Of a stretch of DNA of 64,000 nt, positions 2,284 to 46,056 are shown in pieces; the stretch's first letter is position 1; each line of letters opens with the position of its first letter. The translations under genes and the position numbers were made by a program. The notes beneath the pieces are model-generated. The model was not told where the DNA came from and searched no databases. It worked only from the letters and a program-made list of their open reading frames with translations. The DNA is taken from sequence record PV730302.1; one strand, given 5' to 3'. This DNA is from a phage.

Positions 2284-4003
2284 TCAGAATAGTTTTCGTC
2301 GCAATAAACTGATTGAAGAAATGGCTCCTCAGCGTCGTGCTGAGGCGCTAGCCCAAACTCAGAACGACGAATTAGGAAATATATCAGATGTTTTATCCGA
2401 TTCCCAGGCGGCGTCTGAATTGCTCTCTGAAGTGGTTGAGACAAAGTCTAATCAGATTATTAGTTCTGTAGACCGAGTAGATAAAAGCGTCCAAGATGTT
2501 GTTGCCGGGACAGAATTAACGGCTGAAGCTATATCAGAACAAACTCAACAATCTAAAGCTCTTTCGGATGCACTAAACGAAAAGATTAATAAGCTTTCTA
2601 ATATGTTAGAGGCTAAATTTTCTGGTATTTCTATTCCACCGGAAGGGAGCTCATTAAAGGTTATTGAAGACTCTATTCCGGAAGAACCTAAGGCCGAAAC
2701 TCCTAAAGTTCCTGCTGTTGTTGAAGATATTCTTCCACCTGAAGATAATAAACCTGACGCTGAATTTATGCCTGAGCCTCCTAAAAATTCAGATGAAGGT
2801 AAAGAAGGTGATAAGACTTCTCTTTCCGAGAAAATAGAAGCCCTTACTAAAATAACTGAAAAGGGATTTAAAGCTTCTATAGGCGTCGCTGATAGAATTT
2901 CAGGCATGCTTTTTAAGTATACCATTACCGCTGCCGCTGAAGCTGCTAAACTCGCCGCAGGTTTAGTCCTTTTAATATTTGGTATAGATGCCATTCGTGT
3001 GTACTTCCAATATTTCATGGACCAATTTGAGGCAGGATGGAAAGAATTTAACGATAAGTTTAAAGAGTGGGGACCATTACTTGAAGGGCTAATGACATGG
3101 GCCAAGAATGCTGAAGCCATGTTTAGTGAAGGGAACTGGTTAGGTCTGGCTGAAGCCATTATTCGTGGTATGGTTAATCTTACTAAAAATATGGCCCAGC
3201 TTTTAATGCTCGGTATTTCTAAGTTGATTTCTGCCATTTTAAGCAAAATACCTGGTATGGGTGAGTTAGCTGAAAACGTGGAGGCTTCCGCTTTAATGTC
3301 GTATCAGCAAAATACAGGAGCCACTTTGGATGATGAAGACCAAACTAAAGTAGCCAAGTACCACGATAGACGTTCTGCCGAGGCTTTAGAAACAGCCGAG
3401 AAAATGAATAAGAAGTATAAGGATAAACCCGAGCTTATAAACCAAGCAGAGAAATACGGTAATCTTACTAAAGAACAAGCTGACCAATTACGTGCAGGTG
3501 GAATTGACACAAGCTTCCGTGACCTCCCTGAAGAAGAACGATTAGAGTATTTCAAGAAGCGGGATAAAGCCCAAGCCGATATTATTCGTTTGACTCAAAC
3601 TGCTGATAATATAATGAAGCCTGATTCTAAAGATATCGAAAATGCTAAAGCATTTAAAGCTGATATCGAGAAACAATTGGCCGACCCTATTATGGCTAAA
3701 GGCGGAGCACCGAAGGACCTTAATATCCAGCAATTACTTGATAAGATGAATAAATCTTTAGAGAAATTTAATGAAGCTGAAAAGCCTAAACCTGCTTCTG
3801 TAGCGGAATCTCCTGAAAATACCCAGGTTAAAAAGGTGGATGAGCAAATGAGAGCAAAGGAAAATGCTAAATATAGTCAGCAGGCTCCAACTCAAATAAA
3901 TCAGCAAACGAATATCAAGAAAACGAGTAAGACTAGTTATAATTTACCTCCACAGTCCTCTACTCCTGCTCCTGGTATGCGTCAAGCTACTAAAGTTAAT
4001 TAG
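2267..4003 (+). CDS. 29: baseplate hub / tail length determining protein gp29
   Basis: 578 aa (T4 gp29 590 aa); extended, low-complexity, coiled-coil-like sequence typical of tape-measure-like proteins; synteny. Confidence 0.65.
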   Translation: MKNESNQNSFRRNKLIEEMAPQRRAEALAQTQNDELGNISDVLSDSQAASELLSEVVETKSNQIISSVDRVDKSVQDVVAGTELTAEAISEQTQQSKALSDALNEKINKLSNMLEAKFSGISIPPEGSSLKVIEDSIPEEPKAETPKVPAVVEDILPPEDNKPDAEFMPEPPKNSDEGKEGDKTSLSEKIEALTKITEKGFKASIGVADRISGMLFKYTITAAAEAAKLAAGLVLLIFGIDAIRVYFQYFMDQFEAGWKEFNDKFKEWGPLLEGLMTWAKNAEAMFSEGNWLGLAEAIIRGMVNLTKNMAQLLMLGISKLISAILSKIPGMGELAENVEASALMSYQQNTGATLDDEDQTKVAKYHDRRSAEALETAEKMNKKYKDKPELINQAEKYGNLTKEQADQLRAGGIDTSFRDLPEEERLEYFKKRDKAQADIIRLTQTADNIMKPDSKDIENAKAFKADIEKQLADPIMAKGGAPKDLNIQQLLDKMNKSLEKFNEAEKPKPASVAESPENTQVKKVDEQMRAKENAKYSQQAPTQINQQTNIKKTSKTSYNLPPQSSTPAPGMRQATKVN

Positions 4004-6029: not shown

Positions 6030-6034
6030 CAAAA

Positions 6035-6056
6035 AAGGAGAGCATATGCTCTCCTT
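6035..6056. terminator. perfect 22-bp palindrome between convergent genes (putative bidirectional terminator)
   Basis: aaggagagcat/atgctctcctt located 5 nt after the gene 54 stop and 8 nt before the stop of the minus-strand ORF 6064..6354. Confidence 0.5.
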
Positions 6057-6063
6057 TAGGGGT

Positions 6064-6354
6064 TTATTTACGGAACGAAATGAAACCTGCTGTGGTCATT
6101 AGTGGTTGCTTTTTAACAAACACCGTAACCGAAATAGGAGCTTCGGATTCGAGTTGTCCTGTCACTACACCGTTAAAAATGTTTTCGGTTTGTTCTGGAT
6201 AAGAAAAATTCTCAACAGGTCGGATATCAAACTGTTTGTCTTCACCGAAAACTCGACGTAATTCATTACCCACTGCACTGTCAAACTCTTCAGAAGCAGG
6301 GATAACGTTTTCAACTACCAGTTCTTGACCATTAAAACGGAATGTAGATTTCAT
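6064..6354 (-). CDS. hypothetical protein (position of T4 alt.-1/-2/-3 small ORFs)
   Basis: 96-aa ORF downstream of the alt-like genes on the minus strand. Confidence 0.4.
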   Translation of the reverse strand: MKSTFRFNGQELVVENVIPASEEFDSAVGNELRRVFGEDKQFDIRPVENFSYPEQTENIFNGVVTGQLESEAPISVTVFVKKQPLMTTAGFISFRK

Positions 6355-6411
6355 AATGTTCTCCTCATGTTTGTGTAAGGTAATAGTACCACATCCTTGT
6401 GGTAATGTAAA

Positions 6412-8538
6412 CTACATTTTGAATTTATTTGATAAAGAAGAGATATCCAAAGATGCAGCAAGGATTTCCATAGCCTCGTTACTTTCAGAAATGGATTCAC
6501 TAACCAAGAACTGTTTAAAGCCGTCCATCAGGCGAACTTCACCAGTTTCCATCAAATGGTCACCATCGTAAACAGATTCACTGAGCTCTGAAGGAGGTGT
6601 TACGGTAGCTTCCATAAGGTATTTGTGAGATACTCTATCATTCATGGCAAAAGCCGCTACTTTATCAACCTTCAACAATAATCCACGCGGAAGGATAATT
6701 TCTGCTTCTTCGGCATATTCTGTAAGGTCACCAGGAGCGATAACTTTAACTGCTTCAGCACCTCGAATAACCATACCAATTTCAGCAATTCTATCCGCAG
6801 GACCTTCAGGTGCAATTGGATTACCGAACTCGTCTTCTTCCCATTCTACCTCTTCGTCATCGACTTCACCCACATCAGATGAACTACCGCTAGCCAATTT
6901 AAACAACTCATCAGCGGAGGATAAAGAACCTTCGCCGCCAACAAAAACGGCTTGGTTGTCGAGGGCCATATAATTTTTACCAAATTCACCAAAGATGTTA
7001 GGCTTTAATGAGGCTGACACAAAGTTCTTAAAGTAAAATGTTTTGTTATCGATATTATGGCGCAGAATTTTGTATGGCAAATCCTGACCACGATACAAAA
7101 TAGTACCCTTAGGAAGTTTAATACCCTTAGTAAATGCTGAGTCTAAATCCTTAATCAATTTAATAGCCGTTGTATTGTTTTCGGATTCAGGTTTACCTAA
7201 AAGGAATAAGTTCATAGGAGCATATTCAGCTGCGCAATATTCAATAATAGCATTGCTTTCGTCTTTGGTTAGGTCCTTAGGTTTAATGAGCTCGCCTGAA
7301 TAAGCATATGCATCACTAATAGAATCGTTAACCAGTTTATAAACGGCTTCCATAGCGAAAGCAATTCGAGAGGCCTTTTCTGAAGGAGAACCCTTAAAAC
7401 GAGCACTCAAGTTATTAACAATTTTCTTAATAATATCCAGACTATTGGTTGTATTGATTTGCGAAAGACCACTTAAAAGTCTATCGACTTCTGTATTAAA
7501 AAATGCCATATTATTAGAGTAAATTTCAAACCCTTGTTTATCTCTATTAGCATAATTTAGTTTAAATTTACTATCAGTCATTAAAGCGTGCGTGAGGGCA
7601 ATAGTGTATCTAAAGTTGGCAAGGTCCTCGCTCTTAGATTTAAACTGAGAAGCCTGGCGCATTTTAGTAATAGCACCTTTTTTAAAGTTCTGACTAATCT
7701 GTTCAATACCTTCATTCTCAGGGCCTTCAGCCGTGTGAACCGGTACAGAAGCTTCAAACTCGTTATAAACCTGCAATTCTTTAGGGGACAAAGTTTCAGG
7801 CTCAGCAGTAGAATACTGTGCGGCTGCTGCCATACGACGGGAAATCTTAGTACGGGTAATGACAGCCTTATCAGTACGTTTCTCTTCAACTTGTGCAATA
7901 GATGCCGCTACTGCTTCGACCTTACTTACGGCCTGGCCGGTTTTCTTAGAAACATACACTTCGCCAACTTTAGACTCAACTTTAGTATAAAGATCGGCAT
8001 TAATTTCAGGCATACCCTTGATATCTTCAATATTAGCACCGCGACGTACTAAAAGAACGTAGGTATGTTTTCCGCTGAATTGGAACATGTCGTCAACAAC
8101 TTTAAACTTACCACCGGTACGGGCCATAGCCAAACGAGCTAATACGCGCTGAACGGTAGGGCCTTTACCTTTCATTTTCTTAGTAGGGAAACGGAATAAA
8201 ACCGCGTCCATTTTAAGTTTGTTTATTTGTTCGTATATGGTATCGAAAATGGTGTTCAGTGTACCGAGTGGATCGGTACCCAACCCACCCTTGAGTTCTG
8301 CCGGAGCGCCTTTAGCAGACAAACTCATCAAAATAACATGAACATATTTGTCGCCCGGCTTAACCATTTTAATAGCGTCTCCTTGAGACGCATAAGATAC
8401 CATACGAGCAACCAGATTATCGTTACCTGGGGCTTGGATAGAGAAAATCTGTGGAATACCGGAACCTGGTTTAAGATTTGTTACTGGATAGTTTTTAGCG
8501 GAATCACTATCAAAAACCTCATTTAAATTTTCCATCAT
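6412..8538 (-). CDS. alt: Alt-like ADP-ribosyltransferase, paralog B
   Basis: 708 aa; shares blocks ARMVSYAS.GDAIK, HVILMSLSAKG.PAELKGGLG, RFPTKKMKG with the upstream paralog; C-terminal ART-like motifs YRGQ, FVSASL, EAEIILPRG (R-S-E). Confidence 0.7.
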   Translation of the reverse strand: MMENLNEVFDSDSAKNYPVTNLKPGSGIPQIFSIQAPGNDNLVARMVSYASQGDAIKMVKPGDKYVHVILMSLSAKGAPAELKGGLGTDPLGTLNTIFDTIYEQINKLKMDAVLFRFPTKKMKGKGPTVQRVLARLAMARTGGKFKVVDDMFQFSGKHTYVLLVRRGANIEDIKGMPEINADLYTKVESKVGEVYVSKKTGQAVSKVEAVAASIAQVEEKRTDKAVITRTKISRRMAAAAQYSTAEPETLSPKELQVYNEFEASVPVHTAEGPENEGIEQISQNFKKGAITKMRQASQFKSKSEDLANFRYTIALTHALMTDSKFKLNYANRDKQGFEIYSNNMAFFNTEVDRLLSGLSQINTTNSLDIIKKIVNNLSARFKGSPSEKASRIAFAMEAVYKLVNDSISDAYAYSGELIKPKDLTKDESNAIIEYCAAEYAPMNLFLLGKPESENNTTAIKLIKDLDSAFTKGIKLPKGTILYRGQDLPYKILRHNIDNKTFYFKNFVSASLKPNIFGEFGKNYMALDNQAVFVGGEGSLSSADELFKLASGSSSDVGEVDDEEVEWEEDEFGNPIAPEGPADRIAEIGMVIRGAEAVKVIAPGDLTEYAEEAEIILPRGLLLKVDKVAAFAMNDRVSHKYLMEATVTPPSELSESVYDGDHLMETGEVRLMDGFKQFLVSESISESNEAMEILAASLDISSLSNKFKM

Positions 8539-10623
8539 TTACCCTTGGATGAATTTTTCTGGGATGTCATAGAGGTCTATGCATGAAGCCAAAAGAGGCA
8601 ATACATCAAACCGTGTAGATTTAACAAATGAATCAAAAGATACAGGGCTTTCGGAAGTATCGAAGTCATCTTGATATACGACCAACTCGCCGGTTTCCAT
8701 TAGTACGTCACCATCATATACCACAGATTCTTGAAGCTCATCTGTTGTCATAACTTCAGCTTGGATGAGTTTTGTATTACTAGATGTTGTTCCATCATTA
8801 TTAGAAGCATCTGTTATTTTATTAACTTTGACCATTAATCCACGCGGTAGAATAACTTCAGCTTCAGTTGCTATTCCGAGATTTCCTGGATATACGACAT
8901 TAACTTTATGAGCTCCATCAATCGCCCATCCTATTTGAACTTTAACATAATCAGGATTTTCTTTATATGCTCTTATTTCATTAGGATTAATAGTTATTCC
9001 TTCTTCATTTTTATCGACTGTCAATTCATTACGAACTTCCGGTTCTAAAAGACCAATACCTGCGTGCGTAACACCAAAACGTCCAAAAATGATAGGAGTT
9101 AAAGAAGTAGATACAAAATTTCTGAAATAGAACACTTTATTTTTAACTAGTGCTTCGTATATAGGAGCAGTCATACTCTGGGCACGATAAACTGTAATGC
9201 CTTCTGGTATACGGTCACCATTTTCAAAAGCAGAATCCAAATTATTAACTGCGGATTCGATATCTTTTTCGCTCATAACCTCATAGTTCTGAGGATTATA
9301 ACGTCCTAAAAGAAGATTATTTATGTCTGTATATCCTGAACCACAATATTCTCTGATGCCGCGCTTTTGTGATGGGGTATATTTAGAGCCCTCACGAGCA
9401 ATAGTAATATCGACCATAATACCGCCACCCACACCAGCAAAACTATATACACGTTTTTTAATGAACTTGGTCTTGGTGGCTTTCCACTTCGCATCGGTCA
9501 ATTCATTCCAGAGGTCGTCAGGTTGGCCTTTACGAGTTTTGTTATGCCGGGCCAGCCATTCACCTTTGTATTCTTCGAAAACGGTATTAATAGCAGAGGC
9601 ATATTTTTCTAGAGCTTTAACAGATGTCAAAGGTTCGTTTTTGATGGCCGTAAGAATTTTATCTTTAATTTTCTCTTGGATTTCGCCAATACCGTGAAGT
9701 GGGAACAATTTATAGTCGTAATGCAATTCTTCAGCAGTGCCTTCAGCTACTATATTAGCAACCCTATTTTTAGCCGCAGGAGAATTGTTATTAATGACCA
9801 TTTCCTGGGCCTCAGGGATTAATGGAACTGTTGCCGGTTTATTAAAATCCGCTGCAGTAGCTTCATATTTCTTAAACAATTCACTTTCATTACGATAAGA
9901 TTCCAATGATTGGCTTGCTGCAATGGCGCGCCTAGAAATCTTAGTCTTGGTTATAACCATTTTATCAGTGCGACGTTCTTCAACCTTAGCAATACTGCCG
10001 GCAATAGCAGTTTCTTTAGTAACCTGCACACCTTCTTTTTTGGAAATATAAACTTCACCGACATCAGAATCTACCTTAGTATACAATTCAGCATTAATTC
10101 CAGGCATACCTTTGATATCTTCGATATCAGCTTGTTTACGAACTACTAAGATGTAAGTATGTTTACCGGTAAATTGGTACATAGCCGGAACCACTTTAAA
10201 ACGTCCACCGGTTTTCTGTGCTACCAAACGTTGGATAATACGTTGAACGATAGGGCCTTGACCTTTCATTTTCTTGGTAGGAAAACGGAACATCACGGCA
10301 TCCATACGAAGCTTTTTAACTTGGTCATAAACCACATCAAAAATAGTATTAATCGCATCTACAGGAGTAGGGCCAAGGCCACCTTTAAGTTCGGCTGGAG
10401 TACCTTTAGCTGAAAGGCTCATAAGGATAACGTGGGCATATTTATCACCCATTTTAACTTGTTTAATAGCATCACCTTCAGAAGCGTAGGATACCATACG
10501 AGCAACTAATTGGGATTCTGCGTCGCCGATCTTCCAAATCTGGGGTACTTTAAGTTTAGGGTTCAAGTTTACTGTAGGCAGTGTGCCTTCGGACTCAAAC
10601 ACTTCATTTAATTGTTCGGTCAT
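8539..10623 (-). CDS. alt: Alt-like ADP-ribosyltransferase, paralog A
   Basis: 694 aa (T4 Alt 682 aa); N-terminal LNEVFESEG..PKLKVPQIW resembles the Alt capsid-targeting region; C-terminal YRAQ, FVSTSL, EAEVILPRG motifs; stop abuts start of paralog B (TAAATG). Confidence 0.75.
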   Translation of the reverse strand: MTEQLNEVFESEGTLPTVNLNPKLKVPQIWKIGDAESQLVARMVSYASEGDAIKQVKMGDKYAHVILMSLSAKGTPAELKGGLGPTPVDAINTIFDVVYDQVKKLRMDAVMFRFPTKKMKGQGPIVQRIIQRLVAQKTGGRFKVVPAMYQFTGKHTYILVVRKQADIEDIKGMPGINAELYTKVDSDVGEVYISKKEGVQVTKETAIAGSIAKVEERRTDKMVITKTKISRRAIAASQSLESYRNESELFKKYEATAADFNKPATVPLIPEAQEMVINNNSPAAKNRVANIVAEGTAEELHYDYKLFPLHGIGEIQEKIKDKILTAIKNEPLTSVKALEKYASAINTVFEEYKGEWLARHNKTRKGQPDDLWNELTDAKWKATKTKFIKKRVYSFAGVGGGIMVDITIAREGSKYTPSQKRGIREYCGSGYTDINNLLLGRYNPQNYEVMSEKDIESAVNNLDSAFENGDRIPEGITVYRAQSMTAPIYEALVKNKVFYFRNFVSTSLTPIIFGRFGVTHAGIGLLEPEVRNELTVDKNEEGITINPNEIRAYKENPDYVKVQIGWAIDGAHKVNVVYPGNLGIATEAEVILPRGLMVKVNKITDASNNDGTTSSNTKLIQAEVMTTDELQESVVYDGDVLMETGELVVYQDDFDTSESPVSFDSFVKSTRFDVLPLLASCIDLYDIPEKFIQG

Positions 10624-10658
10624 AATAATTCCTCTTTAATAACCTTATTTATGCCAGA

Positions 10659-10676
10659 AAAGGCCCTAAGGCCTTT
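10659..10676 (-). other. GC-rich stem-loop between small ORF and alt start
   Basis: aaaggcc-ctaa-ggccttt inverted repeat; minus-strand RNA hairpin followed by a short U tract; possible weak terminator or RNA stability element. Confidence 0.35.
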
Positions 10677-10677
10677 A

Positions 10678-10860
10678 TTAAAGTACTAACAGCGTACGGT
10701 ACACTTCAAATTTAGGACCCTTTTCATAGCGGTCGAAATTATCTTTAAAATCGGCGAACGCGATTTCATTTTCAAATTCAAGGACAATTTGGGACACTGC
10801 AGTGGAGACATCCCCACCTTCTTTATATCCAATAACCACGGTTTCTAAATAAGCTTTCAT
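10678..10860 (-). CDS. hypothetical protein
   Basis: Track ORF 10678..10902 overlaps the ligase 3' end; internal ATG at 10858-10860 (MKAYLETVV...) sits just after the ligase stop. Confidence 0.35.
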   Translation of the reverse strand: MKAYLETVVIGYKEGGDVSTAVSQIVLEFENEIAFADFKDNFDRYEKGPKFEVYRTLLVL

Positions 10861-10861
10861 A

Positions 10862-12385
10862 TTATAGTCCAGTTTGAGACCAATCACCAAATACATCTTC
10901 AAATGTATCAGCTTCTGTTTTATCGAAACGCCAACCTTTAATAATTGGAAGGAAAATACCTACGGTATCAGTACGTCCTTTAGAGTGAACCCAACCATTA
11001 CATTCACAGTCGGCAATACGGCCAATCAATTTACCTTCACGAGCTTGTTTCATAAGAAGTTCACGGTCTAAATCAGGACGGTCTTCCAGTGGAATCAATA
11101 CCTTTTTACCTGATTTATCTTTCTTATGGGTAGTATCTTTAAAGCCTGAGCCACAGTCACTTGTAATTCGACGGCAATGTGATACTAATTCAACACCACC
11201 AAGTTTGTTAGGGTCCTTCGAGTGTTCATAATAACCTACCACTTCTAAAGCGATATCTATTACTTCTTTGAACTTGATAAGATTCTTAGAACGGCGATTT
11301 TCCCAGTAGGAGTCCATGTTCTTAAGGATAATACCTTCCAGACCTTGGTCGACATATTTTTTATAAACGACTTTAGCTTCTTCAAGATTATTAACCCACT
11401 GGTTTTCGATAGCTTCAACACGCGTTGTGCCATGCAATACGACATTATGAGCAACCATAAGTTCTAAGGCTGTAAAGCGTACATCATACTTATCGCCTTT
11501 AATTTTACCTTCGGAATATACGACATCCAATGGGACATAATCCCATGCCTGTAATACCATACCAGCGGCTTCAGTAGCCGAAATAGTTCCTTGAAGAGCT
11601 TTGTTAGCCAAGCCATTTGACGTAGAACGATCGGCGACAGTTTGGAATTCCTTAGCCTTACTTAATTCAGGAAGTTCCTCGTCAAACATACTAAACAAAT
11701 CATTAGATGCTTTAGGTTCTACCTTAGGAGTATGGTAAACTAATTCGCCATCAATCATAACGCCATTAGGATGGCGTTGTCGAGCTTCTTCGGTCATGGC
11801 CATTAATTCAGCAGCCAAAAGATTAAGCCCTTGATATTCATTACCACCACGAGTAAGGAATGTCACACCATCGTTACGAACTTCGGCAAAACAACGAGCA
11901 CCATCAGCTTTTAATTGAGCAAACGCTGGCCATTTAATATTTTTCTTAATCAAAGCTTCATCATAAGAACTCGCCAACATCTGCGGTTGTTCAGGGATTA
12001 AACCTTTCCAAACCTTGTTAGCAATAGAAATCGATGCACCACATTCAAGGTCGCGCATCATTACACGACGTAATACCTCGGCATCCGGGGCCTTAGCATC
12101 AGCAATGATTTGAGCCAGTTCTTCAATAGCCGCATTACCCGTAATCTTACGTGTGGCTAATGTGAATTCAGCGAAATCAAGAAGGTCTTCAAGAGTAATC
12201 ATACCAAAGGATTGAGATGTAAATCCAGGTTCTGGCCACTTTTTAATACCGTAGTTCAGACGACGGGTATAAGCCATACGATAAACACGTTTCAGAAGCT
12301 CATTGTCCTTTTCACGAGCAATAATGGCTTCTTTAGCTTTAGTAGAATCAATAGCAGCAATTTCGTTTAAAATATCTAAAATCAT
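10862..12385 (-). CDS. 30: ATP-dependent DNA ligase
   Basis: Track ORF to 12424; start set at M14 (MILDILNEIAAI...), which matches the T4 ligase N-terminus as recalled; KADGARC adenylation motif (KxDG); C-terminal ...FEDVFGDW..TGL. Confidence 0.9.
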   Translation of the reverse strand: MILDILNEIAAIDSTKAKEAIIAREKDNELLKRVYRMAYTRRLNYGIKKWPEPGFTSQSFGMITLEDLLDFAEFTLATRKITGNAAIEELAQIIADAKAPDAEVLRRVMMRDLECGASISIANKVWKGLIPEQPQMLASSYDEALIKKNIKWPAFAQLKADGARCFAEVRNDGVTFLTRGGNEYQGLNLLAAELMAMTEEARQRHPNGVMIDGELVYHTPKVEPKASNDLFSMFDEELPELSKAKEFQTVADRSTSNGLANKALQGTISATEAAGMVLQAWDYVPLDVVYSEGKIKGDKYDVRFTALELMVAHNVVLHGTTRVEAIENQWVNNLEEAKVVYKKYVDQGLEGIILKNMDSYWENRRSKNLIKFKEVIDIALEVVGYYEHSKDPNKLGGVELVSHCRRITSDCGSGFKDTTHKKDKSGKKVLIPLEDRPDLDRELLMKQAREGKLIGRIADCECNGWVHSKGRTDTVGIFLPIIKGWRFDKTEADTFEDVFGDWSQTGL

Positions 12386-12395
12386 AATCACCTCA

Positions 12396-12674
12396 TTAGT
12401 CATGGATTCTATTATAAGCCACATCAGCCAAAAGCAAGTCTAATCGCTTATGATAAGAGAACACAAATCTCATTCGCCCATCAGATTTGAACTTGGACAT
12501 AAAGTGGACATAAATGAATCCCTGTTCGACGCATTCGCGCCAAACAGGATGGTCTTTAGCCGGATTTACATCAAATGAGTAATCATGATTCACATGACGA
12601 ATAAACTGGTTTACATGACCATAATCCATTGTAGTGGTAGGACCATAGTCTGAAATTGTATGAACTACAAACAT
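12396..12674 (-). CDS. hypothetical protein (T4 30.1 position)
   Basis: Track ORF 12396..12707; probable start at internal ATG 12672-12674 just after the upstream stop. Confidence 0.35.
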   Translation of the reverse strand: MFVVHTISDYGPTTTMDYGHVNQFIRHVNHDYSFDVNPAKDHPVWRECVEQGFIYVHFMSKFKSDGRMRFVFSYHKRLDLLLADVAYNRIHD

Positions 12675-41306: not shown

Positions 41307-44300
41307 ATGGCTACTTTAAAATCGATACAATTTAAAAGAAGTAAAACACCAGGAGCCAAGCCTACTGCAGCTCAGTTAGATGAAGGCGAACTGGCTATTA
41401 ACTTGCGTGACCGCACTATTTTTACTAAGTCAGACCAGGGACAGATTATCGATTTGGGCTTTGCAAAAGGCGGACAAGTTGATGGCGATGTTAATATTAA
41501 CGGGACCCTGAATTTAAATGGTCCTGAAATTGTTGCCTCCGGTGGTTATATAGAATTTAACTATCGTACGACAGGTAGTGGCTCTTGGGCAGGTCAGCAC
41601 AATGCCAAAGCTCCTATTTTTGCTGATTTAAGTGCGGCTGCATCTACTTCAGAATACAACCCACTGATTAAACAACGCTTTAAAGATGGAACATTTTCAG
41701 CAGGTACACTAGTAAGCGAAGGCAGTTTTAAATTCCATTATATTAATGAAGCCGGTGATTCGAAATATTGGACCTTTAATCGTAATGGTAATTTTCAAGT
41801 TGATACTGGTGGCTTGACAGTTACAGGCGGTAGTATTTCCACTTCAGGAAACGTAGCTGCTTCCGGCTTTTTATCAGCACCACAGGTTAATAGTAAAAAT
41901 ATTATTCTTGATTCGAAAAATTTCGGACAGTATGACATCCAATCTTTAGTTAACTATGCTTACCCTGGAACAGGCGAAGAAAATGGTATAAACTATCTTC
42001 GTAAAGTTCGAGCTAAATTGGGTGGAACTATTTACCACGAAATTGCTTCTGCACAAACCGGTAAGAATGATGAAATTTCTTGGTGGACTGGGAATACTAT
42101 TAATACTAAGTTGATGGGGCTTCGCAATGATGGGGCTATGGTATTACGTCGTTCACTTGCTATTGGCACAATTACTACCGATGAAAATACTAACAACTAC
42201 GGTTCTCCTACTCCAATGGGGGAAAGATATATTGCTCTAGGCGACCCTGCCACCGGTTTAAAATATATTAAGCAAGGTGTTTACGATTTAGTAGGTAATT
42301 GGAATTCCGTTGCTTCTATTACTCCTGATAGCTTCCGTAGTACTCGTAAAGGTTTATTTGGTCGTTCAGAAGACCAAGGCGGAACATGGATTATGCCTGG
42401 AACCAATGCGGCCTTTTTATCAGCTCAAACTCAGGCTGACGGGAACCACGCTGGCGATGGTCAGACGCATATTGGTTATAACTCCGGTGGAAAAATGTCG
42501 CACTATTTCCGCGGTAGAGGTCAAACCAATATTAACACCCAAGAAGGCATGGAACTTAACCCGGGTATTCTTAAACTGGTAACCGGTGCAAATAATGTGC
42601 AGTTTTATGCTGATGGGACTATTTCTTCTATTCAACCTATTAAATTGGATAATGAGATATTTTTAAATAAATCCAATAATACTGCAGGTCTTAAATTTGG
42701 CGCCCCTAGCGGAGTTAATGAAACAAGAGCTATCCAGTGGAACGGTGGTACTCGTGAAGGACAGAATAAAAACTATGTGATTGTTAAAGCATGGGGTAAC
42801 TCATTTAATGCCGCCGGTGATAAATCTCGCGAAACGGTTTTCCAAGTATCAGATAGTCAAGGATATTATTTTTATGCCCATCGTAAAGCTCCAACCGGCG
42901 ACGAAACTATTGGACGTATTGAAGCTCAGTTTGCTGGAGCTCTTAATGCTAAAAGTATTAATGCCATCGAAAATTTTAAAGTTAATGGATTAAGCACTTT
43001 AGTCGGCGGAGTTACAATGAGCAATGGGCTTAATTTAACTGGTGGCGCCACTTTTAACGGTCAAGTTAAAATGGGTGGTACCGCTGACACATTAAGAATT
43101 TGGAATGCCGAATATGGTATGATTTTCCGACGTTCGGAATCCGGTTCTTCTGCTTCATTCCATCTTATTCCTACCCTCCAGAATGCCGGCGAAAACGGTG
43201 GAATAAGTGACCTTCGCCCGCTTTCCATTAATTTGGCCAATGGCACGGTTATAATGGGTAATAAAAGTGCTGGGTATGGTCCACTTTTTACAGTAGACAA
43301 CGTAAGTAAATTTGTCCAGACCGACTGTAGACTGCGTGTTAATATGGATTCCGACGCCATTGTGGTAAATGCTTCTTCTCAGGCGTCATCTAACTTTATC
43401 CAAGGACGTAAAGCCGATGTTACAAAATGGTATCTCGGTATTGGCGACGGTGGTAACGTTGTTCGTTTACATAACTATACTTATTCGCATGGTATTGCAT
43501 TAAACTCTGATACTGTTGATATAACCAAGGCACTTAAAATTGGTTCCGATGTTCGTATTGGTCCTGACGGTAATATTACAGGCAGCACTGCATTAGATAA
43601 CTTTAAAAACCTGAACACAACGTTAGACCGTAAAGTTAACACAGGCGGCTGGTCTGGCGGCGCTACTACAGGTTGGTATAAATTTGCTACTGTAGAAATT
43701 CCACAATCGACAGGTACAGCATCCTTTAAAATATCAGGCGGGTCTGGATTTAGTTTTAAAAGTTATGGTCAGGCTTCAATAGCCGAAATAGTCCTTAGAA
43801 CCGGCAATAATAACCCTAAAGGCCTTAATGCTACGCTGTGGAATAGAACTTCTGAAGCTATTTCTCAGATTGCTTCTGTTAATACAAGCGAAGATATCTA
43901 TGATATTTACGTTTACTTAGGTGGGTATTCTAATTCTTTGGTAGTAGAATATACATGCAGTAGCAATAGTAAAGTAACCGTAGTGGGTATTAATAGCGGT
44001 GTCCAGCCTTTGGTAGAAACATTACCTGAAGGTCATGTTGTAGGTAAATCTGTAAGAATGCTGAACAATATTGACGGAATGTTCGCTGCCGGCGAATCGG
44101 ATATTGTTACACGTGGTGAATACGTTACCAATAACCAAAAAGGTATGCGTATCAAATCCAGCGGTAATGATATAGGTTCTAATGCCGCTTTGATTAGAAA
44201 CGACGGTGGAAGTTTTTATATTTTAGTTACAGATAAAAACACGGCAGAAAACCCGAATGCAACTGACGGGTTGTGGAATGGCTTAAGACCTTTCACTATC

Positions 44301-45236
44301 AACATGGCTGACGGTCGTGTTGGTATGAACCATGGGTTAAATATTACTGGTGGTGGTCTGAACGTGGCGGGTGGCCTTAATGTCACCAGTGGTAATACTA
44401 GTTTAGGCAATATCTCGTCTCGTGTGGTTTCATACGCTAGCGCCGGCGCTGTTTGGACTGATGCCGCGGATGCAATGAAATCTAAAATCACCTTTATGGC
44501 AGACCATGGCGATTTATCTAATTCAGGTGGTTATTATCCTATTGTCGGTGCATGGAGTAACTATGGTTCAGCGGGTTATCGTCAAACCTTTGAATTTGGA
44601 TGGGTCGGCACTGGTACCACAGTTGGTTGGCGCGATGGCATTATTCGTATTCGCGGAGATAACGCTAGTGGCCAACAAGCAAGATGGCGCTTTACAATGG
44701 ACGGCCTTTTAGATTGCCCTGGTAAAGTACAGATGCCACAAACAAGTGCCTTTGGTGTTAATACAACTAACTCACTCGGTGGAAGTAGTATAACATTTGG
44801 CGATAGTGATACCGGTATTAAGCAAAACGGTGATGGATTATTAGACATATATGCGAACAATATACAAGTATTCCGTTTCCAAAATGGTGATTTGTACTCG
44901 TATAAAAATATAAATGCTCCTAACGTTTATATTCGTTCTGATATTCGTTTGAAATCAAACTTCAGGCCTATTGAAAATGCTCTTGAAAAGGTTGAACAGC
45001 TCGATGGTTTAATCTATGATAAAGCAGAGTATATTGGTGGTGAAGCGGTTCAAACTGAAGCAGGTGTTATTGCTCAGAAACTTAAAGAAGTATTACCTGA
45101 AGCTGTGCATGAATCTAAAGATTCACAGGAAAATACAGTTCTGGGTGTTTCGACACAGGCACAAGTTGCTCTGTTAATTGAAGCGGTTAAAACCCTGTCG
45201 GCTAAAGTTAGAGAACTTGAAGCTAAATTAAATTAA
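41307..45236 (+). CDS. 37: long tail fibre distal subunit gp37 with C-terminal intramolecular-chaperone-like domain
   Basis: 1309 aa; C-terminal ...[32 protein letters not shown]...[15 protein letters not shown] resembles auto-cleaving intramolecular chaperone (S74-like) domains; longer than T4 gp37 (1026 aa), as in T2-type fibres. Confidence 0.8.
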
Positions 45237-45240
45237 GAAA

Positions 45241-45256
45241 AGGGCCTTCGGGCCCT
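45241..45256 (+). other. intercistronic RNA hairpin AGGGCC-UUCG-GGCCCU
   Basis: Between the gene 37 stop and the gene 38 RBS; no U tract, so more likely a stabilising or processing hairpin than a terminator. Confidence 0.4.
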
Positions 45257-45267
45257 AAGGATTTATT

Positions 45268-46056
45268 ATGGCAATCGTAGGATTACCTGGTTGGGTCGGC
45301 CAATCTGCAGTTGATGAAACTGGCCAGCGATGGATGGATGCAGCGATGCGAGATGTTCGTGTAGCTGTTCCAGGTTGGATGGGTTCGATGGCTAACCAAT
45401 CAAAAGAAATTTACTTATCTATAGGGGCCAATCATAACTATGATAGGAATACCCTTATAAACTGGATGAGAGCACAAGGTGGAGCGCCTGTGGTTATTAC
45501 AATCACTGGTGACTTAGTATCTAACAGCAGAGGAAACCCGTGTCTGGAATTCCCTAGCAACTTACCTAATGCATATATTCAACTTACTATTAATAGTGGT
45601 GTAACTGTTTATGGGCGAGGAGGTAATGGTTCTACTAATGGTTCTGCAGGCCAAGCAGGTGGTACAGCAATCCATAACGCTGCTGGAACCAAATTGCGTA
45701 TTCGAAACAATGGTGCTATCGCTGGCGGTGGCGGCGGTGGCGGTGCTGTATCGTTACAGAACAGCTATCCGACTAACGGTACCTGTGGCGGCGGTGGTGG
45801 TAGACCATTCGGCGTCGGTGGGAAAATAGGGTCTGATGCCATATTGTCCGGTGCAAACGCATCTCTAACTGCCGCTGGCTCAGGTGGTACCACGGTCCAA
45901 TACGGCGCAGGTAACGGCGGTAATGTTGGTGCTGGCGGTGGACGAGGATGGGGCAAAAACGTTTATACCTCTGCAGGCGGTTCAGCTGGTGCAGCCGTTA
46001 CAGGCAATGCTCCTTCTTGGCAGAACGTAGGAACCATCTACGGAAGCCGTGTGTAA
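45268..46056 (+). CDS. 38: receptor-recognising adhesin gp38 (T2-type, glycine-rich motifs)
   Basis: 262 aa; conserved N-terminus MAIVGLPGW.G.SAVDETGQRWM; C-terminal half made of poly-Gly motifs (GGGGGGG, GGGGGRPFGVGG, GAGNGGNVGAGGGRG) separating short variable segments. Confidence 0.8.
   Translation: MAIVGLPGWVGQSAVDETGQRWMDAAMRDVRVAVPGWMGSMANQSKEIYLSIGANHNYDRNTLINWMRAQGGAPVVITITGDLVSNSRGNPCLEFPSNLPNAYIQLTINSGVTVYGRGGNGSTNGSAGQAGGTAIHNAAGTKLRIRNNGAIAGGGGGGGAVSLQNSYPTNGTCGGGGGRPFGVGGKIGSDAILSGANASLTAAGSGGTTVQYGAGNGGNVGAGGGRGWGKNVYTSAGGSAGAAVTGNAPSWQNVGTIYGSRV

Follow-up and report, generated by a model that had tools for sequence, protein, structure and literature searches.

Here, we describe a tandem pair of alt genes in a 64,000-nucleotide (nt) stretch of phage DNA (PV730302.1; hereafter the window) and relate it to the Alt ADP-ribosyltransferases (ARTs) of T4, T2 and other T-even phages. 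Both genes lie on the minus strand. Copy A (altA) occupies the open reading frame (ORF) at 6412..8538 (708 amino acids, aa, in the ORF list of the window) and abuts copy B (altB) at 8539..10623 (694 aa). A preliminary description of this DNA had read the two frames as a tandem of Alt-like ARTs of 708 and 694 aa on the minus strand, and coordinates and profile matches confirm it. The two proteins are 40% identical end to end (BLASTP, E=7e-147), and the 5′ ~700 nt of their genes share 60-65% nucleotide identity. The 5-kb alt region matches Dhakavirus IME281 at 97% identity and some 30 further Dhakaviruses, including JS10, IME08, QL01, MX01, C6 and dhaeg, at 89-94%; the window is a Dhakavirus of the JS98/JS10/IME08 group.

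Family membership of both proteins is clear from profiles, residues and predicted fold. PHROG 802 (Alt-like) is matched over 1-674 of its 674 positions by copy A (E 1.5e-250) as well as copy B (E 7e-263), and Pfam PF03496 (ADPrib_exo_Tox, ADP-ribosyltransferase exoenzyme) scores above cut-off in both, with 64 bits in two stretches for copy A and 124 bits for copy B. The nearest database relatives carry PF03496 together with PF26846 (Alt N-terminal). Checked at codon level, the catalytic residues are R483, S508/S510 and E611/E613 in copy A and R480, S505/S507 and E587/E589 in copy B. The arginine, the first serine and both glutamates are invariant in alignments of 63 (copy A) and 62 (copy B) family members, so that a loss of the R-S-E residues from one copy, which the preliminary description had entertained, is not seen; the E-x-E of the arginine-specific type is present in both. 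The common ART signature proposed there stands as far as these catalytic residues are concerned, but not in its first element, where copy B reads YRA instead of YRG.

Models from AlphaFold2 (AF2; predicted local distance difference test score, pLDDT, 75.6 for copy A and 83.2 for copy B) place the same parts in the same order in both proteins: an N-terminal alpha/beta domain (~15-230), an all-helical middle domain (252-418 in copy A, 248-409 in copy B), a C-terminal domain with the ART fold that characterizes the T4 Alt family, and a low-confidence C-terminal tail. In residue and window coordinates, the N-terminal domain (N-domain) covers residues 8-240 of copy A (7819..8517, minus) and 8-237 of copy B (9913..10602, minus), the middle domain residues 241-425 of copy A (7264..7818, minus; hereafter A-type) and 238-417 of copy B (9373..9912, minus; T4-Alt type), and the ART domain residues 426-654 of copy A (6577..7263, minus) and 418-632 of copy B (8728..9372, minus). 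The N-domain is presumed to be a head-core incorporation module. A sequence search of the PDB returned no Alt structure; copy A had no match and copy B only weak matches to iota/CDTa. When a GNAT fold was considered for the N-domain, the acetyl-CoA motif A ([Q/R]-x-x-G-x-[G/A]) proved not to be conserved, as the K-x-x-G-x-G-like stretch found there ends in E in many members, and a Pfam search gave no match even at E<=10.

The paralogs differ most in their middle domains. Residues 241-425 of copy A (185 aa) form the most divergent block, at 9% identity to copy B, and comparison of the two middle domains yields no profile homology (hhalign probability 0.6%). The A-type domain is related to two other classes of Alt middle domain (hhalign probability 88-90%), and among 63 family members at least four BLAST classes of middle domain occur. 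The preliminary description had located the divergence in a central segment of about 200 aa and in the last 90 or so residues. The former is borne out, but the C-terminal ~68 residues, at 39% identity between the copies, have diverged no further than the ART domain at 40%. Further differences lie within the ART domain itself. The ADP-ribosylating toxin turn-turn (ARTT) loop before the ExE reads LTEYAEEAE in copy A, LGIATEAE in copy B and LAPSNEME in T4. Copy A also carries an acidic insertion of ~50-60 residues that the preliminary description had missed; it lies between the STS motif and the ARTT loop (~residues 519-580; 6799..6984, minus), corresponds to an alignment gap in the other copies, and is predicted to be disordered (pLDDT <50). 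Residues 518-586 have an isoelectric point (pI) of 4.05, with 19 D/E and 3 K/R. By analogy with ARTs of the C3, iota and VIP2 type, on which the naming of such determinants is based, it is plausible that substrate choice is set by the helical middle domain, the ARTT loop and, in copy A, the insertion.

The termini of both proteins resemble those of a processed head protein. In T4 Alt, cleavage by the prohead protease gp21 has been mapped to ITE-6 and LTE-619 (PMC5694885). These sites align with LNE (residues 5-7) in both copies, and with LSE (652-654) in copy A and LQE (630-632) in copy B, so that the gp21 motifs of the T4 Alt family are found here at the level of sequence only. Conservation at these positions is high: the N-terminal site has [L/I]-x-E in 59/63 relatives and its glutamate in 61/63, while at the C-terminal site [L/I] occurs in 59/63 and the glutamate (E654 in copy A) in 63/63; the corresponding glutamate of copy B is invariant in 62/62 sequences. 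Cleavage at these sites would release four propeptides. In copy B these are predicted to be MTEQLNE at the N-terminus (10603..10623, minus), aligned with ITE-6, and 62 aa after LQE at the C-terminus (8542..8727, minus), aligned with LTE-619 and of low pLDDT. Their counterparts in copy A would be M-MENLNE (8518..8538, minus), which directly abuts the TAA of copy B (8539-8541), and 54 aa after LSE (6415..6576, minus), again of low pLDDT. The predicted mature proteins have 647 aa, 71.1 kDa and pI 6.1 (copy A) and 625 aa, 69.5 kDa and pI 8.9 (copy B). A nearly invariant YDGDxLxETGE opens the C-terminal tails, which suggests a shared role in assembly or latency and not in target choice. Since they follow a conserved [L/I]-x-E, the tails are probably propeptides cut in the prohead before injection, and as such would be poor candidates for target specificity; if cleavage is conserved, they never reach the host. 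The emphasis that the preliminary description had placed on divergent C-terminal tails was hence probably mistaken.

Comparison with T4 and T2 gives each copy its own ortholog. On domain-wise identity, copy B is the ortholog of T4 Alt (NP_049811) and of the first Alt of T2. It is 48% identical to T4 Alt overall (N-domain 46%, middle 36%, ART 62-64%) and 66% identical to the first Alt of T2 (middle 66%, ART 94%, N-domain 47%), as compared with 36-40% in the ART domain, 9-13% in the middle domain and 67% in the N-domain to the co-resident copy A. Copy A, by the same measure, is the ortholog of the second Alt of T2-like phages, with 49% identity over the full length (middle 46%, ART 59%, C-propeptide 65%, N-domain 45%) and a C-terminal KFKM in both; to T4 Alt it is 32% identical, with an unrelated middle domain. 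T2 has the gene order ligase, alt.1, Alt (698 aa), second Alt (686 aa), alt.-3, gene 54. As the pair is shared by T2 and Dhakavirus, the two-gene state predates the Dhakavirus/Tequatrovirus split. With an ortholog pair in T2 and an ancient split, a recent duplication is rejected.

The altA/altB pair is not a new duplication confined to this phage; it is old, widespread in T-even phages and has been annotated before. With the A-type middle domain as query, tblastn against phage genomes gives matches in 460 records. In 44 of these it is at least 95% identical (Dhakavirus); the other 416 lie below 60%, nearly all at ~46-47%, and are of Tequatrovirus type, including T2 and RB33. The N-domain as a query hits 1747 places in 1202 phage records; the records sampled show two copies in many Tequatroviruses, two or three in Dhakaviruses, and one in T4, RB69-like and Klebsiella phages. 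Three Alt genes stand in a row in QL01, MX01, C6, fDHCT2 and AnYang. In JS10 and IME08 both genes are annotated (altb, alta), as Alt RNA polymerase ADP-ribosylases, and alt paralogs have been listed in RB49, 44RR and T4 (Nolan et al. 2006; PMC1524935). A search of 1.84 billion representative proteins with the A-type middle domain returned six tandem-repeat junk proteins and no Alt relatives; this result is uninformative, a likely reason being that other paralogs represent the 50% clusters.

T4 does carry a single alt gene, as the preliminary description stated, but only through loss of the second. The T4 RefSeq record describes alt.-1 and alt.-2 as an old duplication of the first part of alt. 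They are, however, 95% (alt.-1, residues 1-56) and 96% (alt.-2, residues 62-116) identical to the second Alt of T2 and only 56-62% identical to T4's own alt, and for this reason do not derive from the present T4 alt, as the record implies; alt.-1/alt.-2 (3066-3451 of the T4 stretch compared) are instead an A-type remnant. By this comparison T4 has lost most of its A-type copy, of which ~116 first codons survive, and its single alt is a derived state.

Different parts of these proteins follow different histories. In the comparisons below, winA and winB denote copies A and B of the window, and T2_A and T2_B the second and first Alt of T2. Identity in the N-domain follows phage genus (winA-winB 67%, T2_A-T2_B 67%, T2_B-T4 Alt 99%, cross-genus 41-47%), whereas the middle and ART domains follow paralog class (winB-T2_B 66% and 94%; winA-T2_A 46% and 59%). 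The first Alt of T2 (PV648363; 1699-3792 of the T2 stretch) is 99% identical to T4 Alt in the N-domain and 94% in the C-propeptide; this combination of a T4-like N-domain and C-propeptide with a Dhakavirus-like ART, as judged by the alignments, indicates cassette exchange between genera. The exchange of the ART cassette between Dhakavirus and Tequatrovirus seen in T2 and the window looks recent. Within Dhakavirus, all informative sites in the first ~220 nt of copy A agree with the middle copy of QL01, after which there is a sharp change to QL01 copy A; IME281 has an equivalent switch at ~nt 300. These switch points fit independent homologous recombination in the N-domain repeat that may have taken copy number from three to two or the reverse.

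Regulatory motifs around the pair are consistent with joint expression. A candidate late promoter for both alt genes, CATAAATA, lies at 10646..10653 (minus), at a position homologous to the promoter upstream of alt in T4 and T2 (aligned with the T4, T2 and QL01 upstream regions). It differs by one mismatch from the T4 late promoter TATAAATA, of which no exact match was found upstream of the alt genes. The sole further CATAAATA in the window is at 9318-9325 (minus), inside the copy B coding sequence, with copy A starting ~780 nt downstream; its occurrence may be fortuitous, or it may serve copy A as an internal late promoter. A terminator-like hairpin, AAAGGCC-TTAG-GGCCTTT (10659..10676, minus), separates alt.1 from the alt promoter and is common to T4 and T2; a conserved terminator upstream of alt has been reported (Nolan et al. 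2006; PMC1524935). Copy B has a strong Shine-Dalgarno sequence, AAGAGGA (10630..10636, minus). No promoter or terminator is predicted between copies B and A, and given the abutting stop and start, co-transcription and coupled translation can be inferred. At this junction an extra in-frame ATG (8536-8538) directly follows the TAA of copy B. IME281 has the same, QL01 has ATA, and the junction in relatives is TAA-ATA-ATG. The ATG at 8538 probably arose by substitution within the 3-nt spacer, with the conserved start of copy A at 8535, giving 707 aa; the extra codon explains why the mechanically called ORF has 708 aa and the annotated protein 707.

Neither gene shows signs of decay. The ratio of nonsynonymous to synonymous substitution rates (dN/dS; Nei-Gojobori, against IME281, QL01, JS10 and dhaeg) is 0.04-0.05 for copy A and 0.04-0.10 for copy B over whole genes, and 0.00-0.16 for single domains of both; constraint is strongest in the ART domain of copy A (0.00-0.02). 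Both genes are under strong purifying selection and neither is a pseudogene. With open frames and whole-gene dN/dS of 0.04-0.10, the frameshifted pseudogene that the preliminary description had considered as a counter-possibility falls away.

To place these findings in context, T4 Alt is packaged in the capsid (about 40 copies), injected with the DNA, and acts as an NAD+:arginine mono-ADP-ribosyltransferase. Its targets include R265 of RNA polymerase alpha, MazF and EF-Tu, and at least 27 proteins are modified (PMC8120803). Against this background, we consider it probable that the locus is an altB-altA operon encoding two anciently diverged Alt ART paralogs that serve as packaged effectors with different specificity; the second packaged effector with a different specificity that the preliminary description had suggested is the most plausible reading of copy A. 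Such an operon would be typical of Dhakavirus and of many other T-even phages. Both genes would probably be transcribed late from the one promoter upstream of copy B, with copy A translated by coupling at the abutting stop and start. The proteins probably enter the prohead core through their shared, phage-specific N-domain, are trimmed by gp21 at the terminal [L/I]-x-E to mature forms of ~69.5 and 71 kDa, and are injected with the DNA. Copy B would then act as does its T4 ortholog, as an arginine-specific mono-ADP-ribosyltransferase, and copy A would most likely ADP-ribosylate a different set of host proteins, because of its unrelated middle domain, different ARTT loop and acidic insertion. 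Over time, the array would change by recombination at N-domain repeats and by exchange of middle and ART cassettes between genera. We infer packaging and injection from the conserved N-domain and propeptides, as we do late co-transcription, cleavage, enzymatic activity and distinct targets from the features given above.

Several observations weigh against this interpretation. Both modelled middle regions are helical with a similar order of helices, and the two domains may share fold and function without sequence similarity. The targets of the paralogs could also overlap substantially, as T4 Alt modifies many proteins. The [L/I]-x-E motif is short and occurs several times per protein, for which reason cleavage is placed solely by alignment to the mapped T4 sites. 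The promoter motif departs from TATAAATA in its first base, and exact copies of TATAAATA show no enrichment in the window. Finally, a search of the accessible literature turned up no virion proteomics, activity assay or target list for either protein of this phage or for any A-type Alt; on function or virion proteomics of the second Alt it yielded only the paralog remark of Nolan et al. (2006) and detections of a single Alt in virions of an RB69-like phage and a Morganella phage.

The same facts can be read in other ways. If the second copy served dosage, acting on the same targets and raising Alt activity per virion, one would understand why both copies keep the same catalytic residues, ExE, N-domain and cleavage motifs, and also how T4 manages without a second copy; the promiscuity of T4 Alt, with its at least 27 modified proteins (PMC8120803), points the same way. 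It is harder to reconcile with an identity of 40% overall and 9% in the middle domain, where profile homology is absent, and with a split older than the Dhakavirus/Tequatrovirus divergence and purifying selection on each class separately. Capsid space is limiting, as alt- mutants package more DNA (PMC3012670), which disfavours a redundant 70-kDa cargo, and on balance we regard simple redundancy as unlikely. The absence to date of direct evidence for packaging or activity of A-type Alts leaves some room for copy A not being an injected effector at all, and being instead a catalytically inactive component of the head, internal or structural, or an ART whose action is confined to late times inside the producing cell. 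Its acidic, disordered insertion between STS and ARTT loop could disturb the active site, and its Pfam ART match is broken into two stretches of 64 bits, as against 124 bits for copy B. The invariant catalytic residues and the constraint on its ART domain were noted above, and we think such a role for copy A quite improbable.

An origin of the pair in misassembly of a repeat, or a duplicate in the course of decay, is scarcely credible. The resemblance of the genes over their 5′ ~700 nt (60-65%) might bring the former to mind, and T4 shows that a copy can decay. The same two-gene layout recurs, however, at 89-97% identity in dozens of genomes that were sequenced independently, and both frames are open, free of frameshifts and have dN/dS well below 1; on these grounds, assembly artefact and pseudogene are rejected.

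The reading of copy A as an effector with its own specificity matters because injected phage ARTs are known almost wholly from T4, a phage with a reduced set. The genomes of T2 and many further T-even phages contain genes for two or three distinct Alt paralogs, which these phages may also deliver. Having been lost from T4, the A-type Alt has escaped study. Going further, we suggest, tentatively and as a real possibility rather than an expectation, that the A-type Alt is a second capsid-delivered ART that acts on a host target of its own, such as a defence or translation factor spared by classical Alt, and that the alt locus is an array of effector cassettes, in which genus-specific N-domains and propeptides flank a swapped middle and ART unit that is gained and lost via the N-domain repeats. 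If the A-type has its own targets, host takeover by T2, T6 and Dhakavirus differs from the T4 textbook picture, and the unequal sensitivity of individual phages to host defences might be accounted for in this way. The T-even phages concerned are in use for therapy and for studies of defence systems. To the existing annotation our analysis adds nothing; its value lies in pointing to a common but unstudied enzyme class and in a reminder about propeptides.

The surroundings of the pair are those of T4. On the minus strand the order is alt.-3, both alt genes, alt.1 and the DNA ligase gene 30, flanked on the plus strand by genes 29, 48 and 54, which is the canonical T4 neighbourhood; the position between gene 30/alt.1 and alt.-3/gene 54 that marks the T4 Alt family is found here as well. 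The order ligase, alt.1, altB, altA, alt.-3, gene 54 is common to T2, JS10, IME281 and dhaeg. The alt.-3 homolog (6064..6354, minus) is the conserved downstream neighbour and bounds the alt array. A promoter of sigma-70/T4-early type (TTTACA, 17 nt, TG-n-TACTAT; 6383..6411, minus), one base after the copy A stop, probably drives it, and a bidirectional terminator with a 10-bp stem (6034-6057) lies between alt.-3 and the convergent gene 54. Upstream, the conserved neighbour is the alt.1 homolog (10678..10860, minus), with gene 30 further upstream. Mechanical calling gives alt.1 as 10678-10902 (74 aa, TTG start), where relatives have 56-60 aa from the ATG at 10860, and the ligase as 10862-12424 (520 aa), where relatives are annotated with 507 aa; the apparent overlap of the two is an artefact of longest-ORF calling. 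PADLOC and NCBIfam searches gave no match for copy A, copy B, alt.-3 or alt.1. Elsewhere in the window, GC content (0.447) and positive GC skew (0.176) both peak at 44001-46000; the segment lies within a 1309-aa ORF (41307-45236) and the one that follows it, distally in an apparent long tail-fibre gene cluster.

Set beside known systems, the Alts share with the bacterial toxins of the R-S-E clade (Vis, C3, iota Ia/CDTa/CPILE-a, VIP2, Certhrax, Tre1) the catalytic fold, the aromatic-R, S-T-S and E-x-E, at just 13-25% sequence identity. Beyond what these toxins have, the Alt proteins possess propeptides, a phage-specific N-domain and a helical middle domain, as well as a long insertion between STS and ARTT loop. 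The internal proteins IPI-III of T4 embody the same concept, a diverse effector cargo on a conserved head-targeting element that is trimmed by gp21 (PMC3012670, PMC9026906), though by analogy only, as the Alts use a ~230-aa N-domain and short propeptides at both ends and not a 10-aa capsid targeting sequence. Among closer relatives, altA and altB of JS10, IME08, IME281 and JS98-like phages are the same genes in the same layout at 89-97% nucleotide identity. QL01-type phages have in addition a middle (third) paralog, which the window lacks. In T2 and other Tequatroviruses, the second Alt (e.g. XUQ82853 in PV648363) lies, as does copy A, downstream of the Alt ortholog; in T2 it has 686 aa against the 707 aa of copy A and is without most of the latter's longer insertion. 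T4 Alt itself has its positional ortholog in copy B, between alt.1/gene 30 and alt.-3/gene 54, with the same three-part architecture, the same R-S-ExE and aligned gp21 motifs at both ends; the upstream hairpin and the position of the promoter are conserved between them, with CATAAATA here and TATAAATA in T4.

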